Virus record (IMG/VR): IMGVR_UViG_3300037692_000177
Location: 1 to 31,519 of that record
DNA: 31,519 nt
Strand: one strand, 5' to 3'
Source: a virus
Taxonomy: Duplodnaviria; Caudoviricetes
In this document: positions 5,929-22,000 of the stretch, piece by piece
Layout of the letters: the number at the start of each line of letters is the position of its first letter
Position numbering within the stretch: position 1 is the stretch's first letter
Notes under the pieces: model-generated
What the model was told of the DNA's origin: nothing
The model's input: the letters and a program-made list of their open reading frames with translations, nothing else
The model's database searches: none
Position numbers and translations under genes: made by a program

Positions 5929-6114
5929 ATGATGTATCTGATCAGCTTAGCCATCGGTGGTTTGATCGTTCTCGCTTCGGAGCGTCGAGAACTGATGGCT
6001 GTGTATAGACGTGCAGGCACATTCAATTTTGGTTTCAGCTTCCTTTCCCGTACAATCTGGACAGCCATCATGGTTTACATCGGCATCTGGGCAACGTTGA
6101 TTCAGATAATCTAA
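5929..6114 (+). CDS. Small 2-TM membrane protein (moron)
   Basis: 61 aa, two hydrophobic segments, starts immediately after the previous stop. Confidence 0.5.
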   Translation: MMYLISLAIGGLIVLASERRELMAVYRRAGTFNFGFSFLSRTIWTAIMVYIGIWATLIQII

Positions 6115-9100
6115 CGCAACCCAATAGCCCGCGCGCCGGCCGCCGGGCCAAGGAAATCCTTGAACTCGACCTGTCCAGTTTGCTCGATGATTTCTTCGAT
6201 CTTATCCTTGGCCAATAGCGTCCGCTTCATCTCAGGCCAGGACGCCCTGACCTCGTCATAGTCGTAAATCCGTGAGATAGTGCCGCCATTGGAAGATCGT
6301 TTGATGATCTTCTCGCGCAACACACCGGCGATTTCCGGGGAGATTGTCTCCAGCTCTTCCAGATACGGCTTGATCGGCATCGGCTCGCGCTTCTCATAGC
6401 CGGGACGCTGCAATGCGATCAGGGCGTTGAGAGGCTCACGCCGATTGATCTCGGCGAGAATTTCCACCGCCGCGCCGCGCGCTTCACGTGAGACTTCGGT
6501 GCGGTTGTCCAGTTTACTCGTCACGCGCACATCGATCCGATTGGCGACAACATCGCGCTGGGTAGCGCTGACCGCCCTTATCATGTCCTGGGCGCGAACC
6601 ATCGGATGCAGGCTGCGCTGATCCTTATCGTAGTGGCCATTGAGGATTGCGAACGCCTTGGCGTCATCATCTTTCATGCGAACGTCAAAGAATTTACGGA
6701 TATCGTCCTTCGACCAAGCCTTGTTATCAACCGCCTCGCTCTTATAACTAGCACCAGCCTGCGCGAACACACCGTCGCGCCCCATCAGGTCCCAATAATC
6801 CTCACTCCCGCGGCTGGAGCGCGACCCGCGCGTTGTGCGAATGAACGGGTATTCCTGCCAGCGGAGTTCCGGCTTCTCCGGATCAAGCGTATCATAGGCC
6901 CTCAGAATATCCCGTGACCAGTCCGAGCCGATCGCATTCATGGTGTATTCGACCATGATCGGACTGACATCGAATGGTGCGATCGGCTGGATGGCTTCAG
7001 CAAAGCGGCGAGACAGGTTCGATGTGTAGGCGGTATAGCGATCCTCCGGCATCTTGCCTTGCATGTATTCCGGCTCGATGGCGCTTTCGAAGAAGTTGTT
7101 CCGGTTGTGCTTCCAGCCGATGTATAGGTCGAGGAGCGGGCTGGACGCTGGCGGCAGAAGGCTGAGGGCCAGCGTCTGGCGGAACCGCTCCCAAGCGGTC
7201 GGATCTTCATCAAACCAACTGTCGTAAGTGGCGCGGACAGCATTCGACGCCACATTGATAATGTCGAAACCGCGTGGAATTTTGTAGGGCTGTCCATTGA
7301 TTGTAAACGTCACGTACAGCGCCCGTTCCATCTTGGACTTGTCTTTGCGTTCTTCCGGCGTATTGAATGCAAGCTCGAACAGCAGATGCGCATGGGCGAT
7401 GATGGCGATGGTTACCCACATGCGGGCCGCATCCTTCAGCGCATCAACCTCAGATTTCGTCAGTTTCTGGAATTGCCGATCGCTAAAGAGCGGCAAGAGC
7501 TTCTTGCGGATGAGCTGCGCCGAGGCAAAGCGGCCTTCATTCGTCTGGGCTAGGAACGCCGCCCGGACCATTTTGTCTGGCCCTTGAAGAGCGGGATTGA
7601 AGAACATAATCGTGCGGTTTGCGACCATCTGGCTTGGAGCTGCGCCCATGCGACCATAGTCGGTGTAGTCCCGAGATCGCTGGACCGCCGCCTCCAGGGC
7701 AATAAACGTCTGCTGCTCAGGCGGCATTGTCGGATAGCGGCTTTGCACATCGGCGATTGCGCGGTTGAACGAGATGCGGGCAATGGTCTGGCGGGCATTG
7801 GATTCAGTCCATTCCGCCCATTTCCAGAAATCCTCATGCCATGGATTGATCGTGCGCGCCCAGAAATCACGGCGCCACGGCTCTAGCGTCACACCATCTG
7901 TCCGCAGTTCAGAAATCCGGCCGGATTGCAAAAGCTGAATATCCGTGCGGCCGATGCCGCCCATGATGCCGCCGTGTCGTGCGAGGATGTCGCCCCACGT
8001 TTCGTCACCTCGATTTATGCGTGCGCGGTTCGATGCGATCGTGCGAATGTTGGAAACGAGCGGAAAGTACCCAGCTTGCAGCGCCGACGCTTGGAATGTG
8101 TCGCGGATTAGATTGCGCCACATGAATCCAAAACCTGTCGTGATGCCTTTCTGCGGAATGCGCACTGCGGCCGTGACCATGCCGAAGAAGCTGTCAGCCA
8201 TCGGCGTACCGCGAACGGTCTCGAAGAAACCGAGAATATCCTTTGCAATTCCATGGCCATCATCATGGATCTGCAGCATCTTCAGTTGGCCGCCTTCCAT
8301 GTAATGGAGGATGACATCCTTCCCGTCACCAGCTTGCTCGGAGCGGAACAGGGTCGCCACCGCATCGTCTCCGATCATCGCGGCAACGGCGGAGATCATC
8401 TCCTTGGCGTCCTCTGGCGGAAGTCCTTCTTTGCGCGCGGCGGCTTCGAGCGCGTCGCGAACCTTGATCTCCTGGCTGCGCATCCGCGTCGCCGGAACGA
8501 TCTCGGCATAGCGGCCGGCGCCCGTGACCGCATCCGCCATCTGCGCCAAGAGCAGTTTCGGCTTGTTGACTGCGATCTCGAAGTTGGTGTCGAAGACCTG
8601 CCGTGCTATCCCTTCTATCGGATGGATGAAATCCCGATAGGAGCCGCGCAGCTTGAACTTCTGTGCCACCTTGCGCCCGGAGAGCGCCGACGAACTGCCG
8701 AATATTTGATCCGACATATCCCGGAACCACGGCACATAGTCAGGCGAGTTGAGCTTGTGCTCGTATTCCTCTTGACTATCGAGGCCAGCCTGATAACGCT
8801 TGAGCGCCAGGTCGCGGGAGAACTGGTAGACCATCTGCGCCGCGGCGTCAAAGCCCGCATTGGCCGTGTCGAGTTCGCTGACGGTCATCTCGTGATCGCC
8901 GCGTGTATGCTTGTCAGGCGCGTGCGTGAGTTCGGCTTCCCAGCGATTGCCGAGGAAGACGCGGCGCTGCCGGCGCATGGTGTCGAAATACCAGTCGCCG
9001 GTCTGCGGGTTCTGCGGCGGATTGGCGAGACGTCCCCGGTCCTGCGCCGGGTTCATCTCGAAGCGCTGCCAGAGCCAGCGTCCGCGCCGGGCGATCAGGT

Positions 9101-12100
9101 AAGCGCCGAATGCGTCGCGCTGTTCATCGGTCCATTGATCGTATTGCATGCCGCCGAATGCTGTCGCGAGCGCGTCGCGAAGATTGACAGTGCCCTGTCC
9201 GTTGGCATTCTCCCAGTGCACACCGCGCGTAATGTCGATATAGGATGCGCCATCAGCGGAGCCGATCTTCTGCGCCTGCATCTGCGGATTGCGCCAGGCG
9301 GTGAGATCGAGTCCCTGATTATTTTCCTCAGCCTGACGCGCGATCCGCTGGACAAGCACTCGGATTGGATTCGTCTTGTCGATGCGTGACTTGTAGACCT
9401 GCTCCAGATAGCGCCAGAACATGCCGCCGACGGAGGTCAGCCCGCCTTGGCTATGTTCCTTGCGAATTTCCTGCCATGTCGTCTTCGGCACGCCGGATTT
9501 GATCGCGGCGGTGAGCCGACCGGCGGACGAGGCATTGCGCCATTGCTGGTACTGGTCGCGGATCTCCTGAATATCCTGGAGCGTCTGCGGATCTTCAGCA
9601 TCCATGAACTCTTCGAAGGCCGTCATGAAGCCGGGAGCATGTGCCGTTGCGGCTTGCGGATTCGTCAGATATAAGCGGAAGAACTCAGCAAAACCCTCAG
9701 AGAGCCCTTGCTGGCCCGTTAAGGCGGCGACACCATGCAGTTCTGCGGCATGAGCGTTCTGTAGCCCAGCAAGCGGATAGCGGCTTTCCAGGGCATGCCC
9801 AACCTCATGTGCTTCGGTGTCGATGTCCTGCAAGACGCGGAGGCGGATGACCTCGGTCTTGCGGCTGAACTGGCCCATGAGGGTGCCGCCTGACATCGAC
9901 ACGGCGCGCGACAGTGCCGGGTCAAGACGGCCCTTGGCCACGGTCAAGCCGAGCCGCCGGCGAAGCTCCCGCTGAATATCGATCAGCGATCCGGGCGCAG
10001 ATGGCGTCAGACCCGGCGTAGGACCGGCAGGGGCGGGCGACAGCGGCAGATTGCGCTTGGTCCCCGGCAATGCCATAGGTGCGACCTGGGCGGCCTCTGT
10101 GCCGCCTCCGAACGCCTCTTCGAACCTCCTCGCAAATTCGGCGGCATTCGGGACCGCCATCGCGGCGAATTCACCGGAACGCTGAGCAACAGGCGTCCTG
10201 CGGATATTGCCTGATTTGTCCTTACGGAGCCAGTTCTTTGCGACGGCCTCATCGATCAGCGGGGCCATTTCAGCATCGCTGACGCCAAGCTTCTTCGCCC
10301 ATTGAGAGCGAGGTGTTTTGCTGTCAAGGATGGTGGCGAAGGAAGCACGGAGTTGGCGTGCGGCATCGGCCGCTGGCCGCGCGGCGGAAGGCTCGCTCTG
10401 CAAGACGAAGTGAACTTCTTGCCCGCCCCACATCGCTTCGCTTCGCTGCCGGAGAGTCTTATCCATCCGCTCCGGGAGGTCAAGGCGACCGAGTCCAAGC
10501 CGACGCTCTGGATCCTTCTTCGCCGTATCGACAAGCCGCGCTTTGAACTCTTCGAGAGTACCGGCATCATCGTGCTTTGCCGCATAGGCGTCATAAACCT
10601 GTGCAATCGAAACGCGGCCATCGAAAGTCGCGCCACGCACTGTCGGCGTCTTCAGCGTGTCGGCAATGGCTAGCACTTGATCGGTGAAGGTATTGGACGG
10701 AGCCGCTTCACCACGCATGCGGCTTGGCAGCGCGCCCATCGACTTCGGGAGCAATGGCGATGTAGCGGCCGTAGCAGCCCCAGGAGCCGCCTTAGCCTTC
10801 TTCCCCGCCTTCGGCTTAGGCTGATATGCTAGAAGCTCCTCGAAGCCCTGGGCAAGCTCTGGAGCCTGCTGCTTGATGAGGGCACGGACTTTGTCTATCT
10901 GCTCTGGAGCAAGGCCACGAAGGCGTGCAGCCATGGCGAGGAGTTCGGGGGAGGCTTCTTGCGCATCGGCATCTTCAAACGGCTGCGCGGTCTGAGAGGG
11001 AGCTTTAGGGTGGAGCGCCCTGAGGTTAGTCGCCTCTTCGGCACGGCGGGTGGCTTCCTTCGCCAACATCGCCTTCGCGGTAGCGTAGTTTTTATGACCC
11101 ACCGGTAAGGCAGGTTCCTTCGTAGCCATATCGGCGGCGCTTCTTTCGACGCGCTCGATGATGGTCTCGGCAATATCTGTCCGCCCGAGTTCGAGAGCGG
11201 CCTGGACACTTTTCGTTGCGTCGCCGAAGTCTGGGCTACTCGCGCTTGTCGCGACCCTCAGGGCTGTTTTCAGAGGGCTATGGTCAACGAGATAGTCATC
11301 CTTCGTAAGAGTTTCTAACTCTTCGTCCATCGCGTCCAAGCGTGCGAGATAATCGGCGCGCTCTGGCGATACCACTTCTTGCGTCGCGTCATCGGCGACC
11401 GGCTGCTCTCCTGTCGGCGCGGCTTCTACCGGAGGCGCAGCGGCCTGTTCTGGCGTCACCGCTTCGCTTGCCGGTTCTAACGGCTGCTCAGCGCCCGCAG
11501 CAGGCTGCTGGACGGCGGGTTCCGCAGCCGGTGCCGTTGGGGCAGGTGCCGGCGCTTGCCCCGCTGTGCCGCCTCTACGGCCTCCTGCGCTCTTGGCCAG
11601 AAGCTTGACAACTTCCTGCGCCGTTTGAGCGATGCCACCGACGCCAGCGCCCATTGCCGTATTCGGCACCATGCCTTCGCCAAGGGCCTGCTTGGGATTA
11701 TAGGTTTCCTCGGCGATTAGGTTTTGCAGAAACTGCTGGCCCCCCTCCTGAACACCTTCCGTTAGTGCTTGCCCACCGATGCGGCCAAGGACACGAGCAA
11801 AAGTCGCGCGCCACGGGAGCGGGATTTTCAGCCGTCCCATCAGGACTTCCAAGGGAAGCATATCCGTCGTGCCAGGGGCAACGCCCAGCATGGCGGCTTT
11901 GGTGATCTCATCCTCGGATAAGCCGGGACGTCCGGCCGCACGTTCTGTCTGGTCGAACTGGACAGCACGCTCCAGCGCCTCGCCGCCACCAGCGGCGCCG
12001 AAGAACAATCCTGCCGGGATGCGACCGGCGAGGCCGAACGGAAGGCCGGCAATCAGCGAGCCTACCCCTTCGCCAAGTTGGCGACCGACGCTCTCCTCAT

Positions 12101-12770
12101 AACCGGAAACTGGCGGCAGAATGGTTCTGGCAAAATCCTTGACCGACTCGCTGGCCTTGTACAGCGCTCGCTCGGTAAGCGGCGTGGGGTTGAAGGCGGC
12201 GGCAGCCCGTTCGGCATCGGCGCGCGTGGCTTTTCGCTGGTCCGGTGACTGATGCTGATAGCCGTAGGCGTCGCTCGTGTCAGGAACAGATTCACCGCGG
12301 TCGATGCGGTTCATGACCTCGATCTGATCACGACCGAACGCACCAGCGTTTGATTGGCCGCGAGTTTGAAGCGCCGCGCCGAGTGCCGGAGGCAAAGCCA
12401 ACATGCTGACCGCACCGGACGCAGGACCTTTGATAAACTCCTTGTACTGCTGCGGATCAACCAAGCCCTCGACGAAGCTGCTACCGCGGGCTTCATTCAG
12501 TCTATCGGTGCCTTCGCGCTTGTTGATAGCATCGAGACGCGAAATTGCATCGTTAGTTTCAGGATCGGACGCGAAGGAAGCGCCCGGCGTTGACGGCAAA
12601 TCTGTTTGGGTAGGCGCGGACTGCCCCTTCGGAACAATGGTGTCATTCGCGTCCGCATCATTCTCAAACTGCGAATACGGGTTCTCTGGCGCCTCTTTCG
12701 TAGGTTCGACCACGAACGACGCATCGTCGTTTTCGAATTGCAGATATGGGTTGTCTGATGCCATTGCCAT
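6111..12770 (-). CDS. Large internal virion/DNA ejection protein (polyvalent-protein-like)
   Basis: 2219 aa at the T7 gp16-equivalent position; N-terminal NPYxQFE repeats, Gly/Ala-rich hydrophobic region with EGVQEGGQQ, HEVGH...EGFAEF motif, LPD38-like C-terminal region. Confidence 0.82.
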   Translation of the reverse strand: MAMASDNPYLQFENDDASFVVEPTKEAPENPYSQFENDADANDTIVPKGQSAPTQTDLPSTPGASFASDPETNDAISRLDAINKREGTDRLNEARGSSFVEGLVDPQQYKEFIKGPASGAVSMLALPPALGAALQTRGQSNAGAFGRDQIEVMNRIDRGESVPDTSDAYGYQHQSPDQRKATRADAERAAAAFNPTPLTERALYKASESVKDFARTILPPVSGYEESVGRQLGEGVGSLIAGLPFGLAGRIPAGLFFGAAGGGEALERAVQFDQTERAAGRPGLSEDEITKAAMLGVAPGTTDMLPLEVLMGRLKIPLPWRATFARVLGRIGGQALTEGVQEGGQQFLQNLIAEETYNPKQALGEGMVPNTAMGAGVGGIAQTAQEVVKLLAKSAGGRRGGTAGQAPAPAPTAPAAEPAVQQPAAGAEQPLEPASEAVTPEQAAAPPVEAAPTGEQPVADDATQEVVSPERADYLARLDAMDEELETLTKDDYLVDHSPLKTALRVATSASSPDFGDATKSVQAALELGRTDIAETIIERVERSAADMATKEPALPVGHKNYATAKAMLAKEATRRAEEATNLRALHPKAPSQTAQPFEDADAQEASPELLAMAARLRGLAPEQIDKVRALIKQQAPELAQGFEELLAYQPKPKAGKKAKAAPGAATAATSPLLPKSMGALPSRMRGEAAPSNTFTDQVLAIADTLKTPTVRGATFDGRVSIAQVYDAYAAKHDDAGTLEEFKARLVDTAKKDPERRLGLGRLDLPERMDKTLRQRSEAMWGGQEVHFVLQSEPSAARPAADAARQLRASFATILDSKTPRSQWAKKLGVSDAEMAPLIDEAVAKNWLRKDKSGNIRRTPVAQRSGEFAAMAVPNAAEFARRFEEAFGGGTEAAQVAPMALPGTKRNLPLSPAPAGPTPGLTPSAPGSLIDIQRELRRRLGLTVAKGRLDPALSRAVSMSGGTLMGQFSRKTEVIRLRVLQDIDTEAHEVGHALESRYPLAGLQNAHAAELHGVAALTGQQGLSEGFAEFFRLYLTNPQAATAHAPGFMTAFEEFMDAEDPQTLQDIQEIRDQYQQWRNASSAGRLTAAIKSGVPKTTWQEIRKEHSQGGLTSVGGMFWRYLEQVYKSRIDKTNPIRVLVQRIARQAEENNQGLDLTAWRNPQMQAQKIGSADGASYIDITRGVHWENANGQGTVNLRDALATAFGGMQYDQWTDEQRDAFGAYLIARRGRWLWQRFEMNPAQDRGRLANPPQNPQTGDWYFDTMRRQRRVFLGNRWEAELTHAPDKHTRGDHEMTVSELDTANAGFDAAAQMVYQFSRDLALKRYQAGLDSQEEYEHKLNSPDYVPWFRDMSDQIFGSSSALSGRKVAQKFKLRGSYRDFIHPIEGIARQVFDTNFEIAVNKPKLLLAQMADAVTGAGRYAEIVPATRMRSQEIKVRDALEAAARKEGLPPEDAKEMISAVAAMIGDDAVATLFRSEQAGDGKDVILHYMEGGQLKMLQIHDDGHGIAKDILGFFETVRGTPMADSFFGMVTAAVRIPQKGITTGFGFMWRNLIRDTFQASALQAGYFPLVSNIRTIASNRARINRGDETWGDILARHGGIMGGIGRTDIQLLQSGRISELRTDGVTLEPWRRDFWARTINPWHEDFWKWAEWTESNARQTIARISFNRAIADVQSRYPTMPPEQQTFIALEAAVQRSRDYTDYGRMGAAPSQMVANRTIMFFNPALQGPDKMVRAAFLAQTNEGRFASAQLIRKKLLPLFSDRQFQKLTKSEVDALKDAARMWVTIAIIAHAHLLFELAFNTPEERKDKSKMERALYVTFTINGQPYKIPRGFDIINVASNAVRATYDSWFDEDPTAWERFRQTLALSLLPPASSPLLDLYIGWKHNRNNFFESAIEPEYMQGKMPEDRYTAYTSNLSRRFAEAIQPIAPFDVSPIMVEYTMNAIGSDWSRDILRAYDTLDPEKPELRWQEYPFIRTTRGSRSSRGSEDYWDLMGRDGVFAQAGASYKSEAVDNKAWSKDDIRKFFDVRMKDDDAKAFAILNGHYDKDQRSLHPMVRAQDMIRAVSATQRDVVANRIDVRVTSKLDNRTEVSREARGAAVEILAEINRREPLNALIALQRPGYEKREPMPIKPYLEELETISPEIAGVLREKIIKRSSNGGTISRIYDYDEVRASWPEMKRTLLAKDKIEEIIEQTGQVEFKDFLGPAAGARAIGLR

Positions 12771-12775
12771 GTGGC

Positions 12776-15547
12776 TTATTTCGCCTTGGGTTTGGTGTTT
12801 TGCTCAGGCGCGGGCGACAGATATTGAGCCGCCGAACCCTTCCCATACAATTCTTCGAACCGATCAACCGTTGCCGGGTTCTCCATCAGATAGGCAATGG
12901 CGCGAGCGGGCGGGACTTTAGCCGGAGCGGGCGCAGCAGCGCCGCCCATCGGGCTCTCAGAGTAGGGCATTGCGCCTTCGGTCTGCGTCTCTGGTCTGCG
13001 GAAACTGGCGTCCCCGCCGAGCAATGGACCAACGCCACCCGATTGGCCAGTTGGCTGCGGGCCGAACTTCCGGAACGGCTCGCCCACGAATTCGCCGCCG
13101 AATGCGCGTGTAGCGGCGTTGATCTCAGTCAAATATTCGATGCGGCGAACATCGGTAGATAAGACCGGCTGGCCCTTGAATGCGTTGTCGATTGCGTACT
13201 GAATCTGATCGGCAAGATCTTTATCTTTCACCGCCGTTTCGAGTGCGGCAATGCCAACAGATCGCGCATATGGGCCATAGCGCTCCTGAAGCGTTGCCTG
13301 CATGGGGACGAGCGCTTCCGTCAGCGCCTTGCCCTCCAATCCTCTGACGGGTGACATCAGAACCCGCGCCTCGGCGCGCGTGACTGGCGAGCGCAATCCT
13401 TCCGGAATGCCGACTTTGGCTTGAGCGTCGAGGCGGACGCGGCTAAGGTTCTGCAACGCTTCCGGATCATCCGGCGTGGCGCGAACGGCTTGGATAGCTT
13501 CATCCACTTCCGGAAGCCCTACAACGGATTGCGCCGGGTCCGTGTCGCGCTCTTTCCGCAGATTTTCGACGCGCTTCGTGGCCTTGTCGAAGACCTTCGT
13601 CTTGATCTCGTAAAGCGCCTCGCCCGGCTTCGGCTCAATCGCGGCGAGCCGGTCTTGCAGATCGACCTCCGGCAGCGTATCAAGATCGCTGAGAGCGCGG
13701 TGCTCCAGCGATGCCTCCTGCCAGTCGATCTTTGCTTTCTCGACTTGGTTCTTGGTCAGGAAGCGCTTTGCTCGATCGAGCGCGGTTCGGCCATCGACAT
13801 CCACCGGCGCCTGTCCGGTACGGCGGATCTCCGCTTCGCCGTCTTTCAGCGCCTGCTGGGTCACTTCGCTGCTGGCGATCTTGATTTTGTTTTCCAGCTC
13901 AAGGCGGCGCTTAGGGGAGAGGTTCCGGTAAGGACCATCGTATGACGGGAGCTCCGCGCCGCTGCCATCAACGCCAAGGGCAAGCTTCAGTCTGCCGTTA
14001 AGCCTCGCATCATGGCCACGCTCGCTATAGACGCCGGTGCGGAGCGCTGTCGGGAAATCGCTTTCCAGTTCCTCGCGGTCGGCCTCGGTGATATTGTTCA
14101 GGAACGCGACAGGATCGCCATTGGATGCGGCAAAGGCGGCATTAATCCGCGCCTTGTGCTTTGCCATCCGGTCGATCGAACCTTCGCCCTGCTGGATGGA
14201 ACGATCAGCGAAATAAGCCTGGACGCGCGGATCATTGGCGACATCCGCAGACACGCCAGCCTTCGTCAGCTTCGAGCTTAACTCAGGTGTGATGTTGGCG
14301 GAATACCACCGCATTTCGGCATCATGGAGTTCCACCGGTGCGGACTTGGCAGCATTCGTCCACTGTTCATCAAATGCACGCGTGCCAGGCTTTGCCGTCA
14401 GACCGAACTGCTTGCCGTATTCCGCTGCGAATTTCTGAGCCGAGCCGCCCGAGTTCAGCCCGAAATTCCCATAGGATCGGCTGCCAGCGGAATCAGCCGA
14501 GATATTGGCGACGCCTTCGAGAGGATCGGTCTTGCCGGTTTCGAGCTGGACGGAGATGTTGGCGCGTGCGGCGTCGGGATTGGCGTACTGGCGTTCCTGA
14601 TCCTTATGCAGCCGTTCTGCGTAGGCGGTGGCATTCTCTGGCGTATCGAACATGCCGAGGTATTTGCCAGTCTTTTTATACTGTTCTACCGCATCATCTT
14701 CCGATAGGATCTTGCCATCATCGGAAACCGTTGGAATCAGAACTTCCTTGCCGTCGAAGTTGACCGACATTGAGCGAACGGTGCTGATCGAACCGTCGGC
14801 GTTCTTTACGCGCGGCCGGTTGTTCAGATTGACGTTGCCCGACTGAAGAAGGCCGGCTGGCTTCTCCTCGCGAGTCCTGCCGCGAATGTCGCTCAATATC
14901 GTTTCAATATCTTCGCCGCGATCAACACGGCCCGCGATGTGGGCTTCCTCAAGATCGCCGAAGCCGCCGCGATAAATCTCATCCTTCTCGATTGGCGTCA
15001 GAAACGGATTGGCGCTAACGAGGCTTTTGTAATCCTCGCCAATTTTACTGAGTTCTTCGCCACTTCTGGCCCGACTAAAATATTGATTTTGCTTGGCATC
15101 GTCAATAGACGCCTCCGCTGCACGCTTCTGTTCCGTCCTTGCAAACGTCGATGCTCTACCGTAGAATTCTCGTTCTGCGCCAAACAGCTTGTTATCGTAT
15201 CGGCTCTTTTGGCTCTCGGGGACAGTGGAGAGGAACTCCCTAGCTTTCTGTTTGTATCCAGTCGCCCAATTATCCGCAAGACCGTCGGCCTGTCCTGGCT
15301 CGACCTCGCGCAAAGACTGCTCAAGTCCCTGCTGCTCGCCCCATTTGAATTCCTGAAAGCGTTTTTCCGCATCGAACAGATCGGTTGAACTGCTATAGTC
15401 CGCAACGGCCGCGCCCACCTTGGCAAGGCTCTGTCCGAAGTCTATGATGCCCTTCTGCTCTGCCGATGTATCGACACGAACGATAGAACGCCCAGAGCGG
15501 GCCGATGGCATGCCGCCTAGATCTTCGCGCTTCGGTAGCGTAGCCAA
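12776..15547 (-). CDS. Internal virion/ejection protein with lysozyme-like domain
   Basis: 923 aa, largely helical; internal ETG...ISADSAGSRSYGNFGL resembles lysozyme-superfamily peptidoglycan hydrolases; gp15-equivalent position. Confidence 0.75.
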   Translation of the reverse strand: MATLPKREDLGGMPSARSGRSIVRVDTSAEQKGIIDFGQSLAKVGAAVADYSSSTDLFDAEKRFQEFKWGEQQGLEQSLREVEPGQADGLADNWATGYKQKAREFLSTVPESQKSRYDNKLFGAEREFYGRASTFARTEQKRAAEASIDDAKQNQYFSRARSGEELSKIGEDYKSLVSANPFLTPIEKDEIYRGGFGDLEEAHIAGRVDRGEDIETILSDIRGRTREEKPAGLLQSGNVNLNNRPRVKNADGSISTVRSMSVNFDGKEVLIPTVSDDGKILSEDDAVEQYKKTGKYLGMFDTPENATAYAERLHKDQERQYANPDAARANISVQLETGKTDPLEGVANISADSAGSRSYGNFGLNSGGSAQKFAAEYGKQFGLTAKPGTRAFDEQWTNAAKSAPVELHDAEMRWYSANITPELSSKLTKAGVSADVANDPRVQAYFADRSIQQGEGSIDRMAKHKARINAAFAASNGDPVAFLNNITEADREELESDFPTALRTGVYSERGHDARLNGRLKLALGVDGSGAELPSYDGPYRNLSPKRRLELENKIKIASSEVTQQALKDGEAEIRRTGQAPVDVDGRTALDRAKRFLTKNQVEKAKIDWQEASLEHRALSDLDTLPEVDLQDRLAAIEPKPGEALYEIKTKVFDKATKRVENLRKERDTDPAQSVVGLPEVDEAIQAVRATPDDPEALQNLSRVRLDAQAKVGIPEGLRSPVTRAEARVLMSPVRGLEGKALTEALVPMQATLQERYGPYARSVGIAALETAVKDKDLADQIQYAIDNAFKGQPVLSTDVRRIEYLTEINAATRAFGGEFVGEPFRKFGPQPTGQSGGVGPLLGGDASFRRPETQTEGAMPYSESPMGGAAAPAPAKVPPARAIAYLMENPATVDRFEELYGKGSAAQYLSPAPEQNTKPKAK

Positions 15548-15558
15548 TGGCAGTACTC

Positions 15559-16140
15559 CTAACGGTAACCAGATGAGGAAGTGTCTGGTCCGTATATGTA
15601 TTGGTTGGACTGAAGCTGACGCTTCGGATTGTAGCGGTCGGCCATGCTGGTGATCCCGCCGAGAATGGTACCGGCTGCCGAGTACATCGACCCCTGGCGC
15701 GCGGCCTTGCCTTCGATCCGCCGCCCAGCCGCCTGATCCTCAAGACCAGCACGGCGAGATGCGCCGCCATAAGCCGCCATTTGTTCTTGCAACGAACCGT
15801 AACGCGAGATCTCATCGCTAAGCGCAAGCGCCGTTGGATCGGTCGCGGTGAACCCTGATGCAGCAGAATTGGCCTGCAACGTGGACAGCGCCAAGTTCTT
15901 GCGCCGGCGGAATTCCTCGGCGTCGCGCTGGCTCGCGGCTTGCTCTTCCTTGCCTTTAGCTTCGAGTTGTAAGGCTTCGCCTTTGGCGGTAGCCTCAGCT
16001 TGCTTGCCAGCGGCAATCGTGCCGGCCGCAGTCACGGCGGTTCCGGCAATCGACGCTACCGTCGCGACTGTCGATAAGGTCGGCGCTGCCGCTGCCGCTG
16101 CCGACAGAATTGCGGGCAGTGCGGCAAAAATTGCTGCCAT
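15559..16140 (-). CDS. Small internal virion protein (gp14-like)
   Basis: Hydrophobic Ala/Gly-rich N-terminus followed by a Q/A/E-rich helix; ATG at 16140 overlaps the GNAT stop (TAATG). Confidence 0.78.
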   Translation of the reverse strand: MAAIFAALPAILSAAAAAAPTLSTVATVASIAGTAVTAAGTIAAGKQAEATAKGEALQLEAKGKEEQAASQRDAEEFRRRKNLALSTLQANSAASGFTATDPTALALSDEISRYGSLQEQMAAYGGASRRAGLEDQAAGRRIEGKAARQGSMYSAAGTILGGITSMADRYNPKRQLQSNQYIYGPDTSSSGYR

Positions 16141-16499
16141 TAGGCGGTCCATCGGTAAAGGGTGAGGGATCTGGGATCGAGTTCGAAGCCGAGTGATGTC
16201 AGCCACTCAAGAGAGCGAGGCTCACTGACGTCACGGTCGGCATAAATGAATCTGATATTGTCGCGGCGTAACTCGGCGAAGAAGCGGCGCGCCGCGCGGG
16301 CAATGCGGAATTTGTACTGTCTGGCTTCAGGCTTCAAATCACAAAATGCTTTGTGACGACCATTGATTAACGCAATTCCAGCAATCCCGATAATCTCGCC
16401 GTTCAGTTCCATGACGAGACCGCGAAACGTCGGCGCGCACTTGTCAGGCGCATAGGAAGCCACATCGGCGCGCGTCGCTTGGCGGATGATCGGGCTCAT
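16140..16499 (-). CDS. Virion-module GNAT-fold protein (T7 gp13-like position)
   Basis: MSPIIRQATRADV...GEIIGIAG...SLEWLTSLGF has GNAT-like hallmarks; start reassigned to ATG at 16499 (upstream extension is terminator sequence). Confidence 0.75.
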   Translation of the reverse strand: MSPIIRQATRADVASYAPDKCAPTFRGLVMELNGEIIGIAGIALINGRHKAFCDLKPEARQYKFRIARAARRFFAELRRDNIRFIYADRDVSEPRSLEWLTSLGFELDPRSLTLYRWTA

Positions 16500-16509
16500 G
16501 TCTTCCCAT

Positions 16510-16533
16510 GAAAAAACCCGCCGAAAGCGGGTT
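16510..16533 (-). terminator. Intrinsic terminator closing the RAMP/array cassette
   Basis: Minus strand AACCCGC-TTTCG-GCGGGTT running into a T6 tract. Confidence 0.8.
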
Positions 16534-16544
16534 GTGTGAGTAAT

Positions 16545-16576
16545 GGCGGATGCGGCAGTAAAACGCCGCATCCGCC
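16545..16576. repeat. Perfect 12-bp inverted repeat (REP-like hairpin) at the 3' end of the array
   Basis: GGCGGATGCGGC-AGTAAAAC-GCCGCATCCGCC. Confidence 0.8.
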
Positions 16577-16583
16577 TATGCTT

Positions 16584-17330
16584 TTAGCCGGCCTTGCCGC
16601 TCTGGGCTGTGCCGCGCGCTGCGATGCAGGGACGGACCCGGACTGGACCGGACGCGCCTTGCCTGTCAGAGCGCTGCCAAGCCTGCCTTAACGAGCACTG
16701 CAACGCCAAGCCTCAGATCTGCCACGCCGGGCCGAGACGAGCCTGCCTTAACGAGCAGAACTATGCCGAGCCAAGCCTAGCTGGGCCAGACATTGACCAG
16801 CCGAAACCAACCATGCCTGCTTCGCCTGGCCATGCCGGACCCCACTACGCTGGGACAAGCCCAGCCTTGCCTGCCTATCCTTGCCCACGACTATATTTAT
16901 AGAGCGGCCGATCTCTGCGCTCTCAGTTAGACGGCCTTGCCGAGCAGGGCTGTGCCCTGCCAGACCATGCAGGACTATGCCTGTCCAAGCCAGCCTTGCC
17001 AGACCGCACATCGACTGGCGACATCGCGCCGCAACATTCGATGCCCTGCCATGCCTGACTTACTGTGCCGGTCTACGCTGTGACCAGACCTGACATGCTG
17101 AACAATGCCTGCCTTGTAACGCCCTGCCAAGCCTCGCCAAGCTGGACCGATCTGGGCCCGGCCGAGACAGGACTTGCCTAGCCATGCCGTGCCTGCCGCA
17201 CCAAGCAATGCCTTACCGAGACCAGCCCCGCCGAACCGGGCCAGACCTTGCTGAGCCTTGCCTGCCATACCCGGACAAACATCGCTGAGCAGCGCCGGAC
17301 ACGGCCTTGCCCATCCTTGCCCACAGCCAC
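16584..17330 (-). ncRNA. Array of ~130 GGY/NN pentamers in ~10 units; putative guide-RNA array (VIPR-like)
   Basis: Plus strand parses as (G/A)CC-NN pentamers, e.g. 17191 gcct|gccgc|accaa|gcaat|gcctt|accga|gacca|gcccc|gccga|accgg|gccag|acctt|gctga|gcctt. Units are delimited by a 4-nt step (mostly GCCT-GCC) at 16587, 16681, 16741, 16815, 16869, 16930, 16989, 17053, 17107, 17191, 17260. The repeat is directly visible; the RNA function is inferred. Confidence 0.8.
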
Positions 17331-17332
17331 AT

Positions 17333-17854
17333 TTAACGAGAGGGCCGATCTTCTTCTCTCGACTTCCCGCGAAGCTCGCGGGTTTTGTGAATCACCGGTT
17401 CGACCAAATCGAAGAGCTGCTTGAACCGGCGATAACGCTGTTGAAACGCCAGCAGATCGCGCTCTGCTTGGGCAAGCACCGCTGCCTGTAGTGAAGCGCT
17501 CTCCATGACTTCGGCATAGTGCCGATAACCGACGCCATCATCAGCCTTGATCGACACAAAGGCCGGAACATTCATCTGCTCGCCATCATCATCCAGTGGC
17601 ACGATAGAGCGAATGATGCGGCGCGACGTTTCAGTCCAATGTGCCTCGGCAGCCTTCTCAACATCCCATTCATACAGATGATAGGCTGGATGCTTCGGAT
17701 TGCCCTTTGCATCGCGCCAGAGCTGGTCCGGTTCGGCTTTTCCGTTATTGCGCTTCGCGATCTTGACGATGGCCTCCCCCAATTTCTGGGGGTCGGCCTT
17801 CTCCAGATTTTTGATCGCAAGCACTTTCTCTTCATTGAAGACGTAGCGGATCAT
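17333..17854 (-). CDS. Conserved phage hypothetical protein; accessory gene of the RAMP/array cassette
   Basis: ATG at 17854 with GGAG RBS just after the upstream stop; HPAYHLYEWDVEKAAEAHW...RRIIRSI, PAFVSI...GYR and C-terminal helices match a pattern I recognise from phage hypotheticals. Confidence 0.8.
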   Translation of the reverse strand: MIRYVFNEEKVLAIKNLEKADPQKLGEAIVKIAKRNNGKAEPDQLWRDAKGNPKHPAYHLYEWDVEKAAEAHWTETSRRIIRSIVPLDDDGEQMNVPAFVSIKADDGVGYRHYAEVMESASLQAAVLAQAERDLLAFQQRYRRFKQLFDLVEPVIHKTRELRGKSREEDRPSR

Positions 17855-17858
17855 TGGG

Positions 17859-18611
17859 TCACTCCGCAGCCATCTTGTAGGACGCAGGCATTGGCAGTTT
17901 GCCCTTGCCGTCCTTGAAGGCGTTCCAGGCTTTCTCCTCATGCTCATCGGCAAGATGGAAAGCGCCGAACATGCCCTTACGCTCGTTACGCCATTCGCCA
18001 AGCCCAGAGGCCATGCCGGCTTCCATGATCAGAAAACCCAGCGCTTCATCGGTGATCACCGTCGAATTGAACCGGCCGGTGATCTGCATGGCCCAAACCG
18101 AGAATTGGGCTCTGTAGGCCAAGTTCGCGACCTTGTTCAGCCCCGCGCCGATCTTCACCATATCCTCGCGGCACAGCGGCGGGTGGCTCGGCTGGTCCGG
18201 GTCGCCGCCGTAGATCCGCAACAGCGGCATATCGCAGATCGCGGATGACAGCGCCGGCCGCGTGCGGATCATATGTGCATCGATCCAGAGCGCGCCGAGA
18301 ACTGCGGTACGTGCAATGCCGCGATCCTTGTGTGCGGACGACAAAATCGCGTTTTTGAAACCGGTCGCCGGGAAACCGTAACTGCCGTCCCCCATCTCGT
18401 ACATGCTGTCAACGAAATCCTGATGCGGATCGCGAACTGACTTGCCCGGCTTGATCGCTTTCGCCTGCTTTTGCAGCATTTCCAGCTTGGCCTTATGACT
18501 CCAAGCATGGGTGATAAGCGGCGTGTCTCCGACGATCCAGATGCTAAAGCGCTTGAACGTCGTCGGCTTCGATAGAGCCTTCGTGAGACTCACAATTTCT
18601 TCTTTTGCCAT
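17859..18611 (-). CDS. Stand-alone RAMP/Cas7-like protein (Vipr-like)
   Basis: ATG at 18611 with GGAGA RBS, 250 aa; N-terminal strand FSIWIVGDTPLITH, YGFPATGFKNAI (cf. RAMP P.IPGSSLKGA.R) and C-terminal Gly-rich loop GLGEWRNERKGMFGAF; no other cas genes in the window. Confidence 0.72.
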   Translation of the reverse strand: MAKEEIVSLTKALSKPTTFKRFSIWIVGDTPLITHAWSHKAKLEMLQKQAKAIKPGKSVRDPHQDFVDSMYEMGDGSYGFPATGFKNAILSSAHKDRGIARTAVLGALWIDAHMIRTRPALSSAICDMPLLRIYGGDPDQPSHPPLCREDMVKIGAGLNKVANLAYRAQFSVWAMQITGRFNSTVITDEALGFLIMEAGMASGLGEWRNERKGMFGAFHLADEHEEKAWNAFKDGKGKLPMPASYKMAAE

Positions 18612-18681
18612 TTTATCTCCTGAATGTGGCCGGTTGCAATCCATTGGCCGTTGGCCAAAATGCGATGCCACGTTTACAAGA

Positions 18682-18737
18682 GTGTACGTAAAGTATATAG
18701 CTCTATGCTGTCAACGCTAAATATACGAAAAGTTCAC
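18682..18737. promoter_or_regulatory. Leftward sigma70-like promoter with two flanking 17-bp pseudo-palindromic operators
   Basis: TTGACA on the minus strand at 18709-18714; GTGTACGTAAAGTATAT (18682-18698) and ATATACGAAAAGTTCAC (18721-18737) match at 12/17 as an inverted pair; the -10 element is weak. Confidence 0.55.
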
Positions 18738-18742
18738 AAAGG

Positions 18743-18771
18743 TTGCCGTACCGATGCCAATCGCATACTTT
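18743..18771 (+). promoter_or_regulatory. Rightward promoter for the XRE gene (probably leaderless mRNA)
   Basis: TTGCCG-N17-TACTTT, then 6 nt, then GTG at 18778; no SD sequence. Confidence 0.55.
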
Positions 18772-18777
18772 GCCCGC

Positions 18778-19014
18778 GTGATCACGCCCGCTCAAATCCG
18801 CGCAGCCAGAGCGCTTGTTGGTTGGACCCAAGCCGATCTTTCAAGGGCGTCCGGCGTGTCCGAGATCAGCATCAAGAACATTGAGCGCGGCGTTACCGAT
18901 CCGCGCGCAAGTACATTGGCGGCTATTCAGAAGGCTTTCGATGAAGCCGGCGCCATGTTCCTAGAACCAGGCGATACTCGCGATGGCGGCAGCGGCATCA
19001 GACTCAAAAAATAG
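18778..19014 (+). CDS. XRE-family HTH transcriptional regulator
   Basis: ITPAQIRAARALVGWTQADLSRASGVSEISIKNIERG...PRASTLAAIQKAF...GIRL; divergent from the RAMP-like gene; ORF track start 18754. Confidence 0.9.
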   Translation: MITPAQIRAARALVGWTQADLSRASGVSEISIKNIERGVTDPRASTLAAIQKAFDEAGAMFLEPGDTRDGGSGIRLKK

Positions 19015-19018
19015 GGTA

Positions 19019-22000
19019 TCAGACTCGGTCATTGGTTTGGACCGAAGGAATAATCGCTAAGACCGTACAGGGGCGGGGTGCCTGCGCCCGCAGTTGGATT
19101 CTGGAATCCGCGTTATGCGTGCCGTTCATCGACATGGCAACTTGATCGAAGTCTTCGAAAATCTTATCGGCATCAACGACAGCCCCGCCATCAATGACTT
19201 GAGGCAGTCCATCAAGGTGGCCGGTATCGGATCCGTACTGGAGGCCCCGGCAATGAGTCTTGCTCAGGACGAACGCCACTTGAGCGACGCGTTTCATCTG
19301 AGCCAAAGCCGTGCCGCCTTCAGCGGCGTAAGCCAATTTTGCCGAGCGCCAATCCGCACTATAGGGCAATCCCGCTACTGCGTGATGGACACTTTCATTT
19401 AACGTAATCGTCCCCGCGCCCGTATCGACTGTGTAGAGCGTTTGTGCTGAATTATAGCCGGGCGATAGATCCTTCCCCGCCGTTGACTGCCCTGTGTCGT
19501 CGCTCCAGACCACGACCGACTTGCCCGCGAGATGGCTGAAGCCGGTCAGAACGCTGGCGCGGCCGGTGTCCGTGAAAGAAACGGCACAGTCGGCTAGATA
19601 CGACAGCCCCGTATCGCCTTGGCATTCTGCCTGCATGGCCCATTTTTCGAGGTAACGCTTGGTGACGCTGTTTATAGTACGGCGAATGTGATAAAAAACG
19701 GCGTCCTCGGAGATGCCTGGCAGCGACATCACCCGTTCGACAAAACCGTCCGTTGACCACGTATACCAGCAGATGATCTCTTCCTGTGGCTCGTAGGTGA
19801 GGAGCCCACAGGTTCCGTCGGCAAGAGCCACGTGAATTCGTGTGTCGGGCTGCCGCTGTATCGCGACCGATACGATGCCAGCGGCGAGCAGATCCGGAAT
19901 TAACGTCGTCAGCTCGCTGCCTTCGAAGTCCCCGAACGTAGCGCCGCTCGTGCCTGCGCCCACCATGAAGATACGCTGCTTAGAGCGCTGCACCACGATG
20001 GCCCGGTTGTCCATCTTGAGAGCGCGGAGATTGGCGGAGCCTTGCGTGGAGAACGCGCTGGCGCTAGAATTGGTTGGCGTCACTGGTTCGTCGAGCGATG
20101 ATGATTTCAGCGCGATCTCGGCGCCGGCCGTGCCGATGATCAGCCGCAGCAATGATATCAGATAGACGATATTATCGACCGGCCCGGAGCCGAGCGTGCG
20201 GATGATGGGAGCAGCATCGCCTATTGTGGCGTCATCGAAGCTCTCGAAGTCATCGGAGACGGACAGGAACAGGTTGCCGCCATTGGCATGACCGAGCCTG
20301 CCGCCATGCAACGCCACGGCTGACGGGAAGCTTCTAGCATCAGACCAGTAGCCTTCCTGCCAATTGTCCGATGTGCCGGTGTCGGAAAAGCGGCTCAGAA
20401 CCTCGATGCCAACGGAAGTGTTGGAATTATAATCGGTGACACGGGCGATGCCGGTAACGCCGCCGCCACCATAAGTGATGGCTACCACAGGTACGCCAGA
20501 AGTATATGCAGAAACTCGCGCACGATACCAAACCTTGATGTTGTTATCGTCATCATTGATCGTCCGGCTGAAAGTACCAGTGTCTGTGGCAGCACTCCCA
20601 GCCATGAAATTTGTCGGAACTGGATTAAACCCAAAATCGAGATTATTGATAGATCGCTCTATGATGATTGTGCCAGACCATGTCCCGCTGACAGAGACTA
20701 TAACTTGTCGCTCACTTCCTGCACCGGTACCAGTATCCTGGATGCCAGTGACTTCAATAGCATCGGTCTTCGCATCCAGCGCTCCAAGCCGCCATTGCCC
20801 ACCCTGTCCCTCATTAAAAATGCGGATCAGCGCTCCAACATGCCCGACCGTGAAGAATGGATTGTCCGAATTCAGCGTCGTATTGCCGAAGAAATGGCTG
20901 ACGGACATTCTTGCGGCCGACGAAGGTGCAGCCAGGAAAGGCCCATTATTGGGTGCATAATCTACAACCGACCATGAGCGTCCCGTACCACGGCGCTCGA
21001 TCTTGCTGGACCTGACTGCGGCGCAATCGACATAGACCACGTCTGCCGATTGGTCATATCGTATATTGTCGAGATCGTTCGTATCCCATGGCGCATCGAT
21101 CTCAACCGTGCCACTGTCGCCGATGGCAATAGATTCAACAATCCGGTTTACTAACGCGTCGCTTTGAAAGGTGATATGAAAATCGCTGGATGGCGTAAAG
21201 GCGAGGTTGTGATGTCCTGTGCCAACGGATGTTTCCGAGATAAAATCATCGTCACCCGCCGACGAGCCAACACGCAAAACCACAGGACCGCGACTGACAT
21301 CAATATTCAAGGAATGTTCAACGCCATAATCGCCAGTATCGACAATGACGCGCTTGGTTGCCTTAGCGCGAGATCCAATTGCATTAGCGTTGAGGATGAG
21401 CCCGGATGCATCAAATCTTGCTTGCGTCGAACTGTCAACCTCAAATAGTTCAACTTCAGAAATGAATAGCTCTCCGCTCACATCGCCGCCGCCGGTGATC
21501 TCCTTGACGTTCCACCGATAAAACCGGAAGGCTTGCGGCGATCCGACTGCAAATTCCCGTTTCTCGCTGACCGCCCATCCGGTTTGATCGCCGCCAGTGT
21601 CTAGCGTCGTCCAACTTGCATCTGAGCCTGTATCGATATCGTTGCCTTGAAAGTCCCAACTGCGCGGCACATTATCCAACTGGGAGGAATTCGCTCCAGC
21701 TCGGAGCGTATAGCGAGCAACCGTCTTGGTATTGCCTGCGCCAAAGTCAACCTTCAACCAGCTTGGGAGCGTGCCTCCTTGGAAGGTGCCCGTATCGGCC
21801 CAGCCGGTAGTATTGTTGTTATCGCCAGTCTGCCAGGATCTTCCGCCCAGTCCGCCGCCAAGCGCGTTCGACGATGACGCCGTCATGGTAACACCACTCG
21901 TAGTGTTACTCGTCATGGTAGGAATGAGATCACCTGCCGCTGATGCGACCGTTCCGCCGGTGCTGGCGTTCGTCCATCCGGTATCGCTGAAACTCACGCT

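Follow-up and report, generated by a model that had tools for sequence, protein, structure and literature searches.

Judged from its sequence, the cassette between positions 16510 and 19014 of the analysed phage DNA (31,519 nucleotides, hereafter the window) is a VIPR system of a kind that has already been published (bioRxiv 10.64898/2026.04.26.720920). VIPR, for which this is the discovery paper, is a CRISPR-related form of RNA-guided gene silencing that was reported only recently. The cassette is located in a virion operon. Its Cas7-like protein likely coats the guides and, as we consider probable, would shut down those genes of sibling phages that match them, among these the siblings' copies of two genes flanking the cassette, by a code in which one target base is skipped for each variable pair. 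Sibling phages without the cassette are the ones likely silenced, and the carrier's own diverged copies are likely spared. The genes, the staggered array, the homology to Vipr, the insertion and the wobble-frame decoding of guides B2 and B4 to homologues of the flanking genes were established directly. The first-pass annotation had linked the cassette to VIPR and suspected that it might not be wholly new; it was right on both points. Its reading as a VIPR-like guide system stands, but it had missed the reading of double-stranded DNA with a skipped base, the stagger that divides the array into guides, and the two guides directed at homologues of the neighbouring genes. Its model of GGY as scaffold and NN as code is supported as well.

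The only PDB sequence match of the 250-aa protein was Vipr of phage SUSP1 (E 6e-4 and 3.4e-5), and comparison of the clade profile with SUSP1-clade Vipr gave an hhalign probability of 97.7% (E 2e-12; 27% identity over 171 columns). A fold search with a predicted model, as proposed at first pass, placed Cas7-family RAMPs and CRISPR complexes (Csm3/Cas7) at the top with modest scores (Foldseek E about 1e-3; best Z 7.4; rmsd 3.9 over 152 residues), so that the original RAMP/Cas7-like call is backed by fold and sequence matches alike. The text of 10.64898/2026.04.26.720927 names H17, R138, D177, W178 and R179 of SUSP1 Vipr as GGY contacts. Within a comparison limited to confidently mapped positions, which leaves out SUSP1 K33 and the E71/M72 pocket, H17, R138, W178 and R179 correspond to H35, R167, W207 and R208, and D177 to E206 (a D-to-E exchange). 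H35, R167, W207 and R208 are invariant across 18 clade members. The protein thus appears to possess the RRM core, thumb and G-loop of a Vipr-family RAMP together with the putative GGY-reading residues. No family of Pfam or PADLOC covered vipr or vap.

A scan with PHROGs revealed no cas gene among the 26 proteins of the window, a 31.5-kb contig that is maybe not the whole genome. PADLOC matched no Cas model in the window, CRISPR repeats are absent from the contig, and the repeated 16-mers of the window all lie inside the pentamer array. These three checks bear out the claim that cas genes and a CRISPR array are missing from the window. What is present is the minimal VIPR locus, vipr with a vap gene and without cas genes or a CRISPR array; the repeat-spacer array and multi-subunit cas operon that define Class 1 CRISPR-Cas were not found in the 31.5-kb contig. 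Comparison with kin phages lacking the cassette at the junction of tail tubular B and the GNAT-like gene identifies it by sequence as an insertion. Of the 15 kin contigs holding both genes, 12 have them separated by no more than about 30 nt, and the gaps in the remaining three (about 0.3, 0.7 and 1.7 kb) contain no vipr; the proposed insertion between the two genes was upheld. The features are listed in Table 1.

Table 1. Features of the cassette and of two neighbouring genes, in window positions.
Feature	Positions	Strand	Basis or remark
XRE/HTH_3 regulator, 86 aa, divergent	18754..19014	+	Pfam HTH_3, E 1.7e-11
Divergent intergenic region: candidate -35 TTGACA (18714-18709, -) and vipr ribosome-binding site	18612..18753	.	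TTGACA conservation
vipr, 250 aa, stand-alone RAMP (Cas7-like)	17859..18611	-	SUSP1 Vipr PDB match; hhalign; Csm3/Cas7 fold matches; PHROG 4652
vap-like accessory gene, 173 aa	17333..17854	-	PHROG 15946; homologue adjoins vipr in 32/34 loci
Block A: six staggered units A1-A6, 10-16 pentamers each, mostly ending in 4-nt GGCA/GTCA/GGCT	16932..17326	-	Periodicity, unit parsing
Spacer/leader ahead of block B, with a small hairpin, a run of A/T and a start resembling GTCGTGGGCAAGGAT	16872..16931	-	Resembles sequence ahead of block A
Guide unit B1	16822..16871	-	Unit parsing
Guide unit B2, 14 pentamers + GGCA	16744..16817	-	Decodes to internal virion protein gene homologue
Guide unit B3, extra base breaks phase; possibly decayed	16684..16743	-	Unit parsing
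Last guide unit B4, 19 pentamers	16583..16683	-	Decodes to GNAT-like gene homologue
3' hairpin 16545-16576 (12-13 bp) and intrinsic terminator 16533-16515	16510..16576	-	Terminator scan; folding z -5.87
GNAT-like virion-module gene, outside cassette, directly downstream of array	16140..16499	-	Homologues are predicted B4 target
Internal virion protein gene (PHROG 418), outside cassette, next but one to array	15559..16140	-	Homologues are predicted B2 target

The array extends on the minus strand from about 17326 to 16583. It contains 38 GGY pairs exactly 5 nt apart, compared with 4.4 +/- 2.2 (maximum 13) in 500 shuffles, and shows autocorrelation peaks at 5, 10, 15 and 20 nt (0.42-0.37; about 0.2 off phase). 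No other stretch of the window resembles it: the top score over 500 nt is 55, and clear of the array the highest is 7. The 5-nt period reported earlier for a GGY/NN array of ~750 nt is confirmed, but not the single run: the array comprises two blocks, divided into some ten staggered units that are each 5n+4 nt long. GGY/NN tracts of about 9-16 units are present, though degenerate, with strict GGY in 69 of 130 in-phase pentamers, a count that takes in some spacer pentamers. The staggered 5n+4 architecture has been published already (10.64898/2026.04.26.720920, legend of fig. S18), and the homologue check suggested at first pass detected pentamer arrays with staggered units in 33 of 34 related loci. 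Tandem Repeats Finder gave only one 19-nt match and otherwise overlooked the array, as its NN positions are variable. The start of the spacer (16872-16907) repeats the sequence at 17308-17343 over 36 nt with 78% identity (family D7); the 60-nt spacer as a whole folded no better than shuffles. Rfam gave no hammerhead ribozyme at E<=5 over 16400-19100 and only sub-threshold hairpin matches in the cassette region, and the terminator claimed earlier was located behind the 3' hairpin. In a public run that possibly represents the source sample, a single contig covers 16406-19300 with zero differences, and an assembly artefact is therefore unlikely. A second public run contained short pieces only, and no RNA run was among the public runs listed as containing the sequence, which carries no information on expression.

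According to the text of the discovery paper, the VIPR code reads double-stranded DNA with one base skipped per NN (10.64898/2026.04.26.720920). Of nine guides tested, B2 and B4 exceeded shuffles, only at a one-base skip and with the skipped base at the wobble position; the other seven gave nothing above shuffles. Skips of 0, 2 and 3 bases produced no comparable signal, the best kin match of B2 being 19, 23, 19 and 20 at skips of 0, 1, 2 and 3. Among 262 guides of the clade, matches with z>=4 near the cassette numbered five at skip 1, one at skip 0 and none at skip 2. By computation, B2, B4 and this clade-wide excess thus all conform to a wobble-aligned code with one skipped base.

B2 matches the carrier's own internal virion protein gene at 15779 in 20 of 28 positions (p 0.02) and the orthologous site in 23 of 28 (82%) in 4 of 16 kin loci, which exceeds the target threshold of 80% given in the text of the discovery paper (10.64898/2026.04.26.720920). 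An unrelated viral contig reaches 24/28 by chance, and the value of 23/28 therefore carries weight solely through its recurrence at the orthologous position within a set of 0.7 Mb. B4 matches the own GNAT-like gene at 16333 in 27 of 38 positions (p 0.007), and its decoded amino acid score was 70 compared with a shuffle maximum of 42. Kin beat the own gene in 3 of 16 loci (29, 29 and 28 of 38), none at 80%. At a position where the own gene encodes H, B4 encodes C/W, and W is found in 17 of 18 homologues. The own flanking alleles match their guides at 71% each, and several of the mismatches are residue-preserving Leu or Ser codon swaps (Arg and Ser in the related locus L027).

Neither the window nor the 60 kin loci contained a match above shuffles to the guides of block A, and B1 had no target above shuffles. 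Candidate pairings of A5 with an XRE gene, A2 with tail tubular A or a vipr gene, and A4 with a gene in locus L066 were within the shuffle range and were rejected. Exact searches of viral contigs with nine-pair patterns of B4 and of B2 gave 0 matches each; the nine-pair search of genome contigs gave 15, none extending past 11 of the 20 remaining bases, and eight-pair searches gave 52 and 5, none in homologues of the tested window genes. A metagenome scan over 9 of 64 parts yielded at least one weak locus.

The same tendency was seen across the clade. Last guides matched the 1.5 kb downstream (p<=0.02) in 7 of 28 cases; for inner guides the figure was 5 of 224, and with swapped loci it was 0 of 84. 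Minus this window the figures are 6/27 and 5/217 (Fisher p 3e-4), in a post hoc test designed after the pattern had been seen in the same loci. The remaining 21 of the 28 last guides matched nothing downstream. Solo or first guides match upstream neighbours in L022, L026 (YqaJ gene) and L027/L029, L022 and L026 not being independent loci.

Three other explanations have to be weighed against silencing of sibling phages. B2 and B4 may instead tune the carrier's own downstream virion genes by partial self-repression, or may be drifted relics copied from the flanks of an ancestor. The own genes are still matched at 71%, few DNA matches of B4 are better than the own GNAT-like gene (27 compared with 29, 29 and 28 in the best kin), and acquisition of guides from neighbouring DNA would account for the proximity to the array. 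We nevertheless regard this as unlikely: B2 fits kin better than self in 10 of 16 loci, B4 carries the W of the family where the own gene has H, the Leu/Ser swaps (Arg/Ser in L027) at guide-self mismatches fit escape and not self-targeting, and the text of the discovery paper reports no self-target of >=80% in the clades checked (10.64898/2026.04.26.720920). It is quite unlikely that the true targets are satellites or prophages with copies of helper virion genes and that the adjacency of the cassette is incidental. The satellites of SUSP1 carry homologues of structural genes of their helper and are the main targets of SUSP1, and true targets were not recovered in our searches; yet the best matches found here all lie in full phage virion modules, and the last guides directed at the downstream gene in unrelated phages would be left unexplained.

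A decaying system with a non-working array appears very unlikely. The low share of strict GGY, the extra base that breaks the phase in B3 and the seven guides without a target would agree with decay, but vipr and the vap-like gene are intact with conserved residues, and the closest relatives are equally or more degenerate and yet retain phase and GGCA breaks; internal degeneracy is also described as frequent in the text of the discovery paper (10.64898/2026.04.26.720920).

For the silencing of sibling phages we propose the following mechanism. As in the published systems, one Vipr per pentamer would coat the guide RNA, GGY would be gripped by the protein, NN would pair with double-stranded DNA, and the target would be repressed without cutting. 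The long transcript may be cleaved at the 4-nt GGCA phase breaks to guides of about 55-100 nt, and the accessory protein may assist DNA binding. With a match of 71% per guide, the own flanking alleles would fall below the working threshold. Because these resistant alleles adjoin the cassette, both would be inherited together in mixed infections.

The closest known system is the staggered-array VIPR (10.64898/2026.04.26.720920, legend of fig. S18), which likewise has a phage-borne stand-alone RAMP with one accessory gene and lacks a CRISPR array. Its units, too, consist of about 9-16 GGY/NN pentamers and are offset from one another by a 1-nt stagger, and its decoding is wobble-aligned with a one-base skip and aimed at other phages. 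In its text the discovery paper gives sRNA confirmation for the ribozyme-spaced and single-guide forms and none for the staggered form. For the latter the text gives no targets, whereas here two guides are directed at homologues of genes beside the cassette itself. The VIPR of SUSP1 (type II, SUSP1/P. fulva; PDB 36PP; 10.64898/2026.04.26.720927; 10.64898/2026.10.15.759431) has a homologous Vipr, about 50 aa shorter, that shares its G-loop and thumb residues with the one here, and its targets as given in the published text are satellites and rival VIPR loci. Its guides are each capped by their own pseudoknot tail, whereas the units here abut via a 4-nt break without tails and are followed by one 3' hairpin pair; the invariant 3' tail per guide, a type II trait, is present at the proxy locus (FSL SP-107) and absent here. 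With the Cas7/Csm3 backbones of Class 1 CRISPR the protein shares a predicted RAMP fold, but here there are no other cas genes or CRISPR repeats, the period is 5 nt and not 6 nt, and the code is gapped.

Taken together, the guides matching flanking genes suggest, from sequence comparison, silencing of cassette-free kin with homing-like linkage. Free-standing homing endonucleases of T4-like phages are described similarly (text of PMC2988022) as intergenic elements with a target in the neighbouring gene of element-free relatives, marker exclusion and biased inheritance. This is an analogy only, as the specificity here would be RNA-borne; no nuclease domain was detected, and any inheritance bias would therefore arise via silencing and selection and not via cut-and-repair. 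Tentatively, and as a possibility that we do not favour, staggered-array VIPR cassettes in general could be RNA-guided, nuclease-free homing elements whose terminal guide acts against cassette-free flank alleles. The carrier alleles would be recoded partly by Leu/Ser/Arg codon swaps, which would be the sole silent escape from a wobble-skipping code, and cassette and resistant flanks would spread together through kin. Guides would then have to be rewritten after each move, and some guide-writing step would therefore exist. A rule linking last guides and flanking genes was not found in the text of the VIPR publications, figures and data files aside. On its own the cassette is one more example of a published system; it adds a staggered-array case in which two guides can be decoded and sites for testing are at hand, and terminal guides that across the clade are directed at homologues of the gene next to the cassette, whichever that may be. 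If true, the rule would bear on the spread of VIPR between phages and on the origin of new guides, and both would become testable.

The accessory protein showed no detectable homology to that of the SUSP1-like phage FSL SP-107, the one proxy sequence for SUSP1-clade Vap1 (hmmsearch score 0.2, hhalign probability 0.5%), and this type II trait is missing as well. Its best Foldseek rows were winged-helix proteins, all non-significant (E 0.26 and up), VIA-align matches were confined to the C-terminal helix pair, Atlas gave unnamed viral clusters only, and tblastn against GenBank phages gave zero matches. The XRE gene had been regarded as part of a complete unit, which applies to this locus but not in general: a divergent XRE gene is located beside vipr in 6 of 34 related loci and is a cassette member in one subclade only. 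As to the promoter claimed for vipr, a consensus scan found none that was convincing, the lone minus-strand call overlapping the start codon. The candidate TTGACA is nevertheless kept with its flanks in the related locus L001, and as TTGAC in L011.

By all features that could be tested here the cassette is a VIPR system, and the link to VIPR proposed in the first-pass annotation holds; each cassette part listed there was found at its position. A search of the protein collection gave 902 homologues of the 250-aa protein, which matched no Pfam family. A sequence search of the PDB gave the Vipr protein of phage SUSP1 as the sole match (E 6e-4 with the single sequence and 3.4e-5 with a profile), and a profile built from 18 clade members reached 97.7% probability against Vipr of the SUSP1-like phage FSL SP-107. 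The proposed RAMP/Cas7 fold was supported by the AlphaFold model (pLDDT 80), for which Cas7/Csm3 chains ranked first in both fold searches with modest scores (Foldseek E ~1e-3; Z 7.4, rmsd 3.9 across 152 residues). GGY-contact residues of SUSP1 Vipr named in the cryo-EM paper (10.64898/2026.04.26.720927) correspond to H35, R167, E206, W207 and R208. Phage records from Mycobacterium (27) and Gordonia (5) contain distant homologues (~31% identity) that are labelled hypothetical.

The array contains 38 GGY pairs at exact 5-nt spacing, compared with 4.4 +/- 2.2 in 500 shuffles, and a scan of the rest of the window revealed no second stretch coming close to this periodicity. Strict GGY is present in 69 of 130 in-phase pentamers, the remainder being mainly GTC, AGC or TGC, and positions 4-5 are of near random composition. 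A one-base phase slip each 54-84 nt, mostly where GGCA meets the following GGC, splits the array into about ten units in two blocks, and the array ends in a strong hairpin and a terminator. The leaders of both blocks are alike (78% across 36 nt) and so are their last units, which suggests that one block may derive from the other by duplication. The TACG.AAAGT near-repeats of the divergent region are a possible XRE operator.

Phased pentamer arrays, expected near the homologues, were present in 33 of the 34 related loci retrieved with the 250-aa protein or its alignment. In these loci, L055 (a locus of a kin phage) and the window, duplicates counted, 227 of 312 phase breaks end in GGCA, GGCT or GGCC; the segmenter used is biased to 4-nt breaks and has no bias for the break sequence. 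These phase-broken arrays are the 'staggered array' described in the discovery paper (10.64898/2026.04.26.720920). The low-GC systems L002-L004, 36-38% identical, carry the array between vipr and the accessory gene vap; their pentamers are mainly GT-rich, with GGCA breaks still present. A homologue of the accessory gene adjoins vipr in 32 of the 34 loci. Homology to the accessory gene of the SUSP1 clade was not detected, and fold searches with the accessory protein yielded no assignment. The system is not of type II. A DNA-binding role, stated for vap genes in the VIPR literature, is putative for the accessory protein by analogy.

The window is an entire virus record of 31.5 kb; a PHROG scan of 26 proteins identified a virion module of podophage type on its minus strand. 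In 12 of the 15 kin contigs holding both tail tubular B and the GNAT-like gene, the two lie at most ~30 nt apart, and vipr lies between them in none of the 15. Because kin contigs join these genes without vipr, the 2.5 kb at this junction are an insertion, as had been claimed. Its GC content (0.58) is the same as that of the remainder of the contig. Since two kin phages hold other inserts there, the junction is an insertion hotspot, and since a terminator precedes the GNAT-like gene, the insertion splits the late operon.

Positions of features in the window and in kin phages
Feature	Position	Strand	Remark
Pentamer array	~17326 to 16583	minus	5-nt GGY periodicity
Final units of blocks A and B	16932-16980, 16584-16630		47-nt shared stretch, 77%
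Near-repeat 10-mer TACG.AAAGT	18685-18694, 18725-18734		divergent region, either side of candidate -35 box
Cassette terminator	16515-16533		just ahead of GNAT-like gene start
Terminase, head-tail adaptor, major head protein, two tail tubular proteins, internal virion proteins, tail spike, endolysin		minus	virion module (PHROG)
2219-aa internal virion protein	6111-12770		LPD38 domain, weak virion RNA polymerase PHROG match
923-aa protein	12776-15547		weak VgrG3-like C-terminal Pfam match under cut-off
Methyltransferase gene	2140-2937	opposite	between tail spike and endolysin
Differing inserts at the junction in two kin phages	L054:15712-17440, L082:4650-5335		~1.7 kb and ~0.7 kb
Distant vipr of kin phage L055	G026:C1 ~11300-11940		24% identity, same capsid module
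Own staggered array of L055	L055:1614-1990		vipr and array at a site other than in the window, upstream of terminase gene

Using the published decoding rule, in which NN pairs are read with one target base skipped, two of nine guides tested against the window itself exceeded shuffles (B2 and B4 of block B), and A1-A6 and B1 did not. B4 matches the GNAT-like gene immediately downstream (27/38, p 0.007) and B2 the following gene for an internal virion protein (20/28, p 0.02), the skipped base being the wobble base in both cases. The decoded peptides are homologous and non-identical to the own proteins, with amino-acid scores of 70 (B4) and 56 (B2) against shuffle maxima of 42 and 40. B4 is readable as LAGVALIGGRWRAFCDLK, where the own gene reads IAGIALINGRHKAFCDLK, and B2 as DEIEKYGSLQEQM, where the own gene reads DEISRYGSLQEQM. 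The codons differ by two Leu swaps, one Ser swap and true substitutions; the own H in the GNAT-like protein is W in 17 of 18 homologues. In a kin set of 60 loci (0.72 Mb) B2 reached 23/28 at skip 1 and 19, 19 and 20 at skips 0, 2 and 3 (shuffle maximum 21), each of its five top rows being the orthologous site, and B4 reached 29/38 (shuffle maximum 26).

Across the clade, 262 guides gave five matches at z>=4 in their own neighbourhoods at skip 1, two of them from the window, compared with one at skip 0 and none at skip 2. When 211 guides were compared with the whole contigs of 27 records, four of six matches at z>=4 lay within 2.5 kb of vipr, and seven of twelve at z>=3 within 4 kb (28% expected). 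In a post hoc test on 28 loci, the related L022 and L026 among them, the last guide matched DNA within 1.5 kb downstream (p<=0.02) in 7 of 28, compared with 1/28 for penultimate guides, 5/224 for inner guides and 0/84 for swapped loci; three quarters of the loci showed no such match. Five loci were left out as duplicate, truncated or array-less and three had no downstream DNA. Minus the window, this post hoc comparison was 6/27 against 5/217 inner guides (p 3e-4). Because the genes downstream of the cassette vary among phages, the guide follows the site.

By analogy to SUSP1, the array transcript is most likely cut into guides on which Vipr polymerises, and the complexes would most likely repress matching genes in competing phages, as reported for SUSP1 VIPR in 10.64898/2026.10.15.759431. 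Targets would include two virion genes of siblings without the cassette. Self-regulation by B2 and B4 is a possible alternative. The kin locus is the better match than the own gene in 10 of 16 loci for B2 and in 3 of 16 for B4, which reaches at least 80% in none of the 16. Satellites are also possible targets. The sequence collections scanned contained no exact target for the guides; in the whole viral collection one unrelated contig matched B2 at 24/28, a chance score for a search of that size. If sibling phages are the targets, aim beside the insertion site may link the weapon with its resistant alleles. In this aim the cassette recalls free-standing homing endonucleases as described in PMC2988022; these are nucleases, whereas none was detected in the cassette, and a homing-like element is a tentative reading that we consider somewhat improbable. 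Guide targeting of neighbour genes was not found in the VIPR texts consulted (passages of 10.64898/2026.10.21.760802 included).

Upstream neighbours are matched by solo or first guides in loci L022, L026 and L027/L029. Upstream of vipr, the solo guides L022:1236 and L026:3835 directly follow a recombinase/exonuclease gene, which in L026 is a Pfam YqaJ gene, and each guide decodes to a homologue of this adjoining gene. In L027 the own gene equals the guide peptide across ten codons with differing Arg and Ser codons, which at the codon level is apparent silent escape. Guides L014:5380 (z 4.8) and L019:5289 (z 5.3) decode to homologues of own genes far from the cassette, the former with an HEXXH motif, the latter at 6.8 kb. 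The peptide read from guide L005:5303 belongs to another vipr gene and differs from the own copy (z 3.1), which is consistent with the published anti-VIPR guides.
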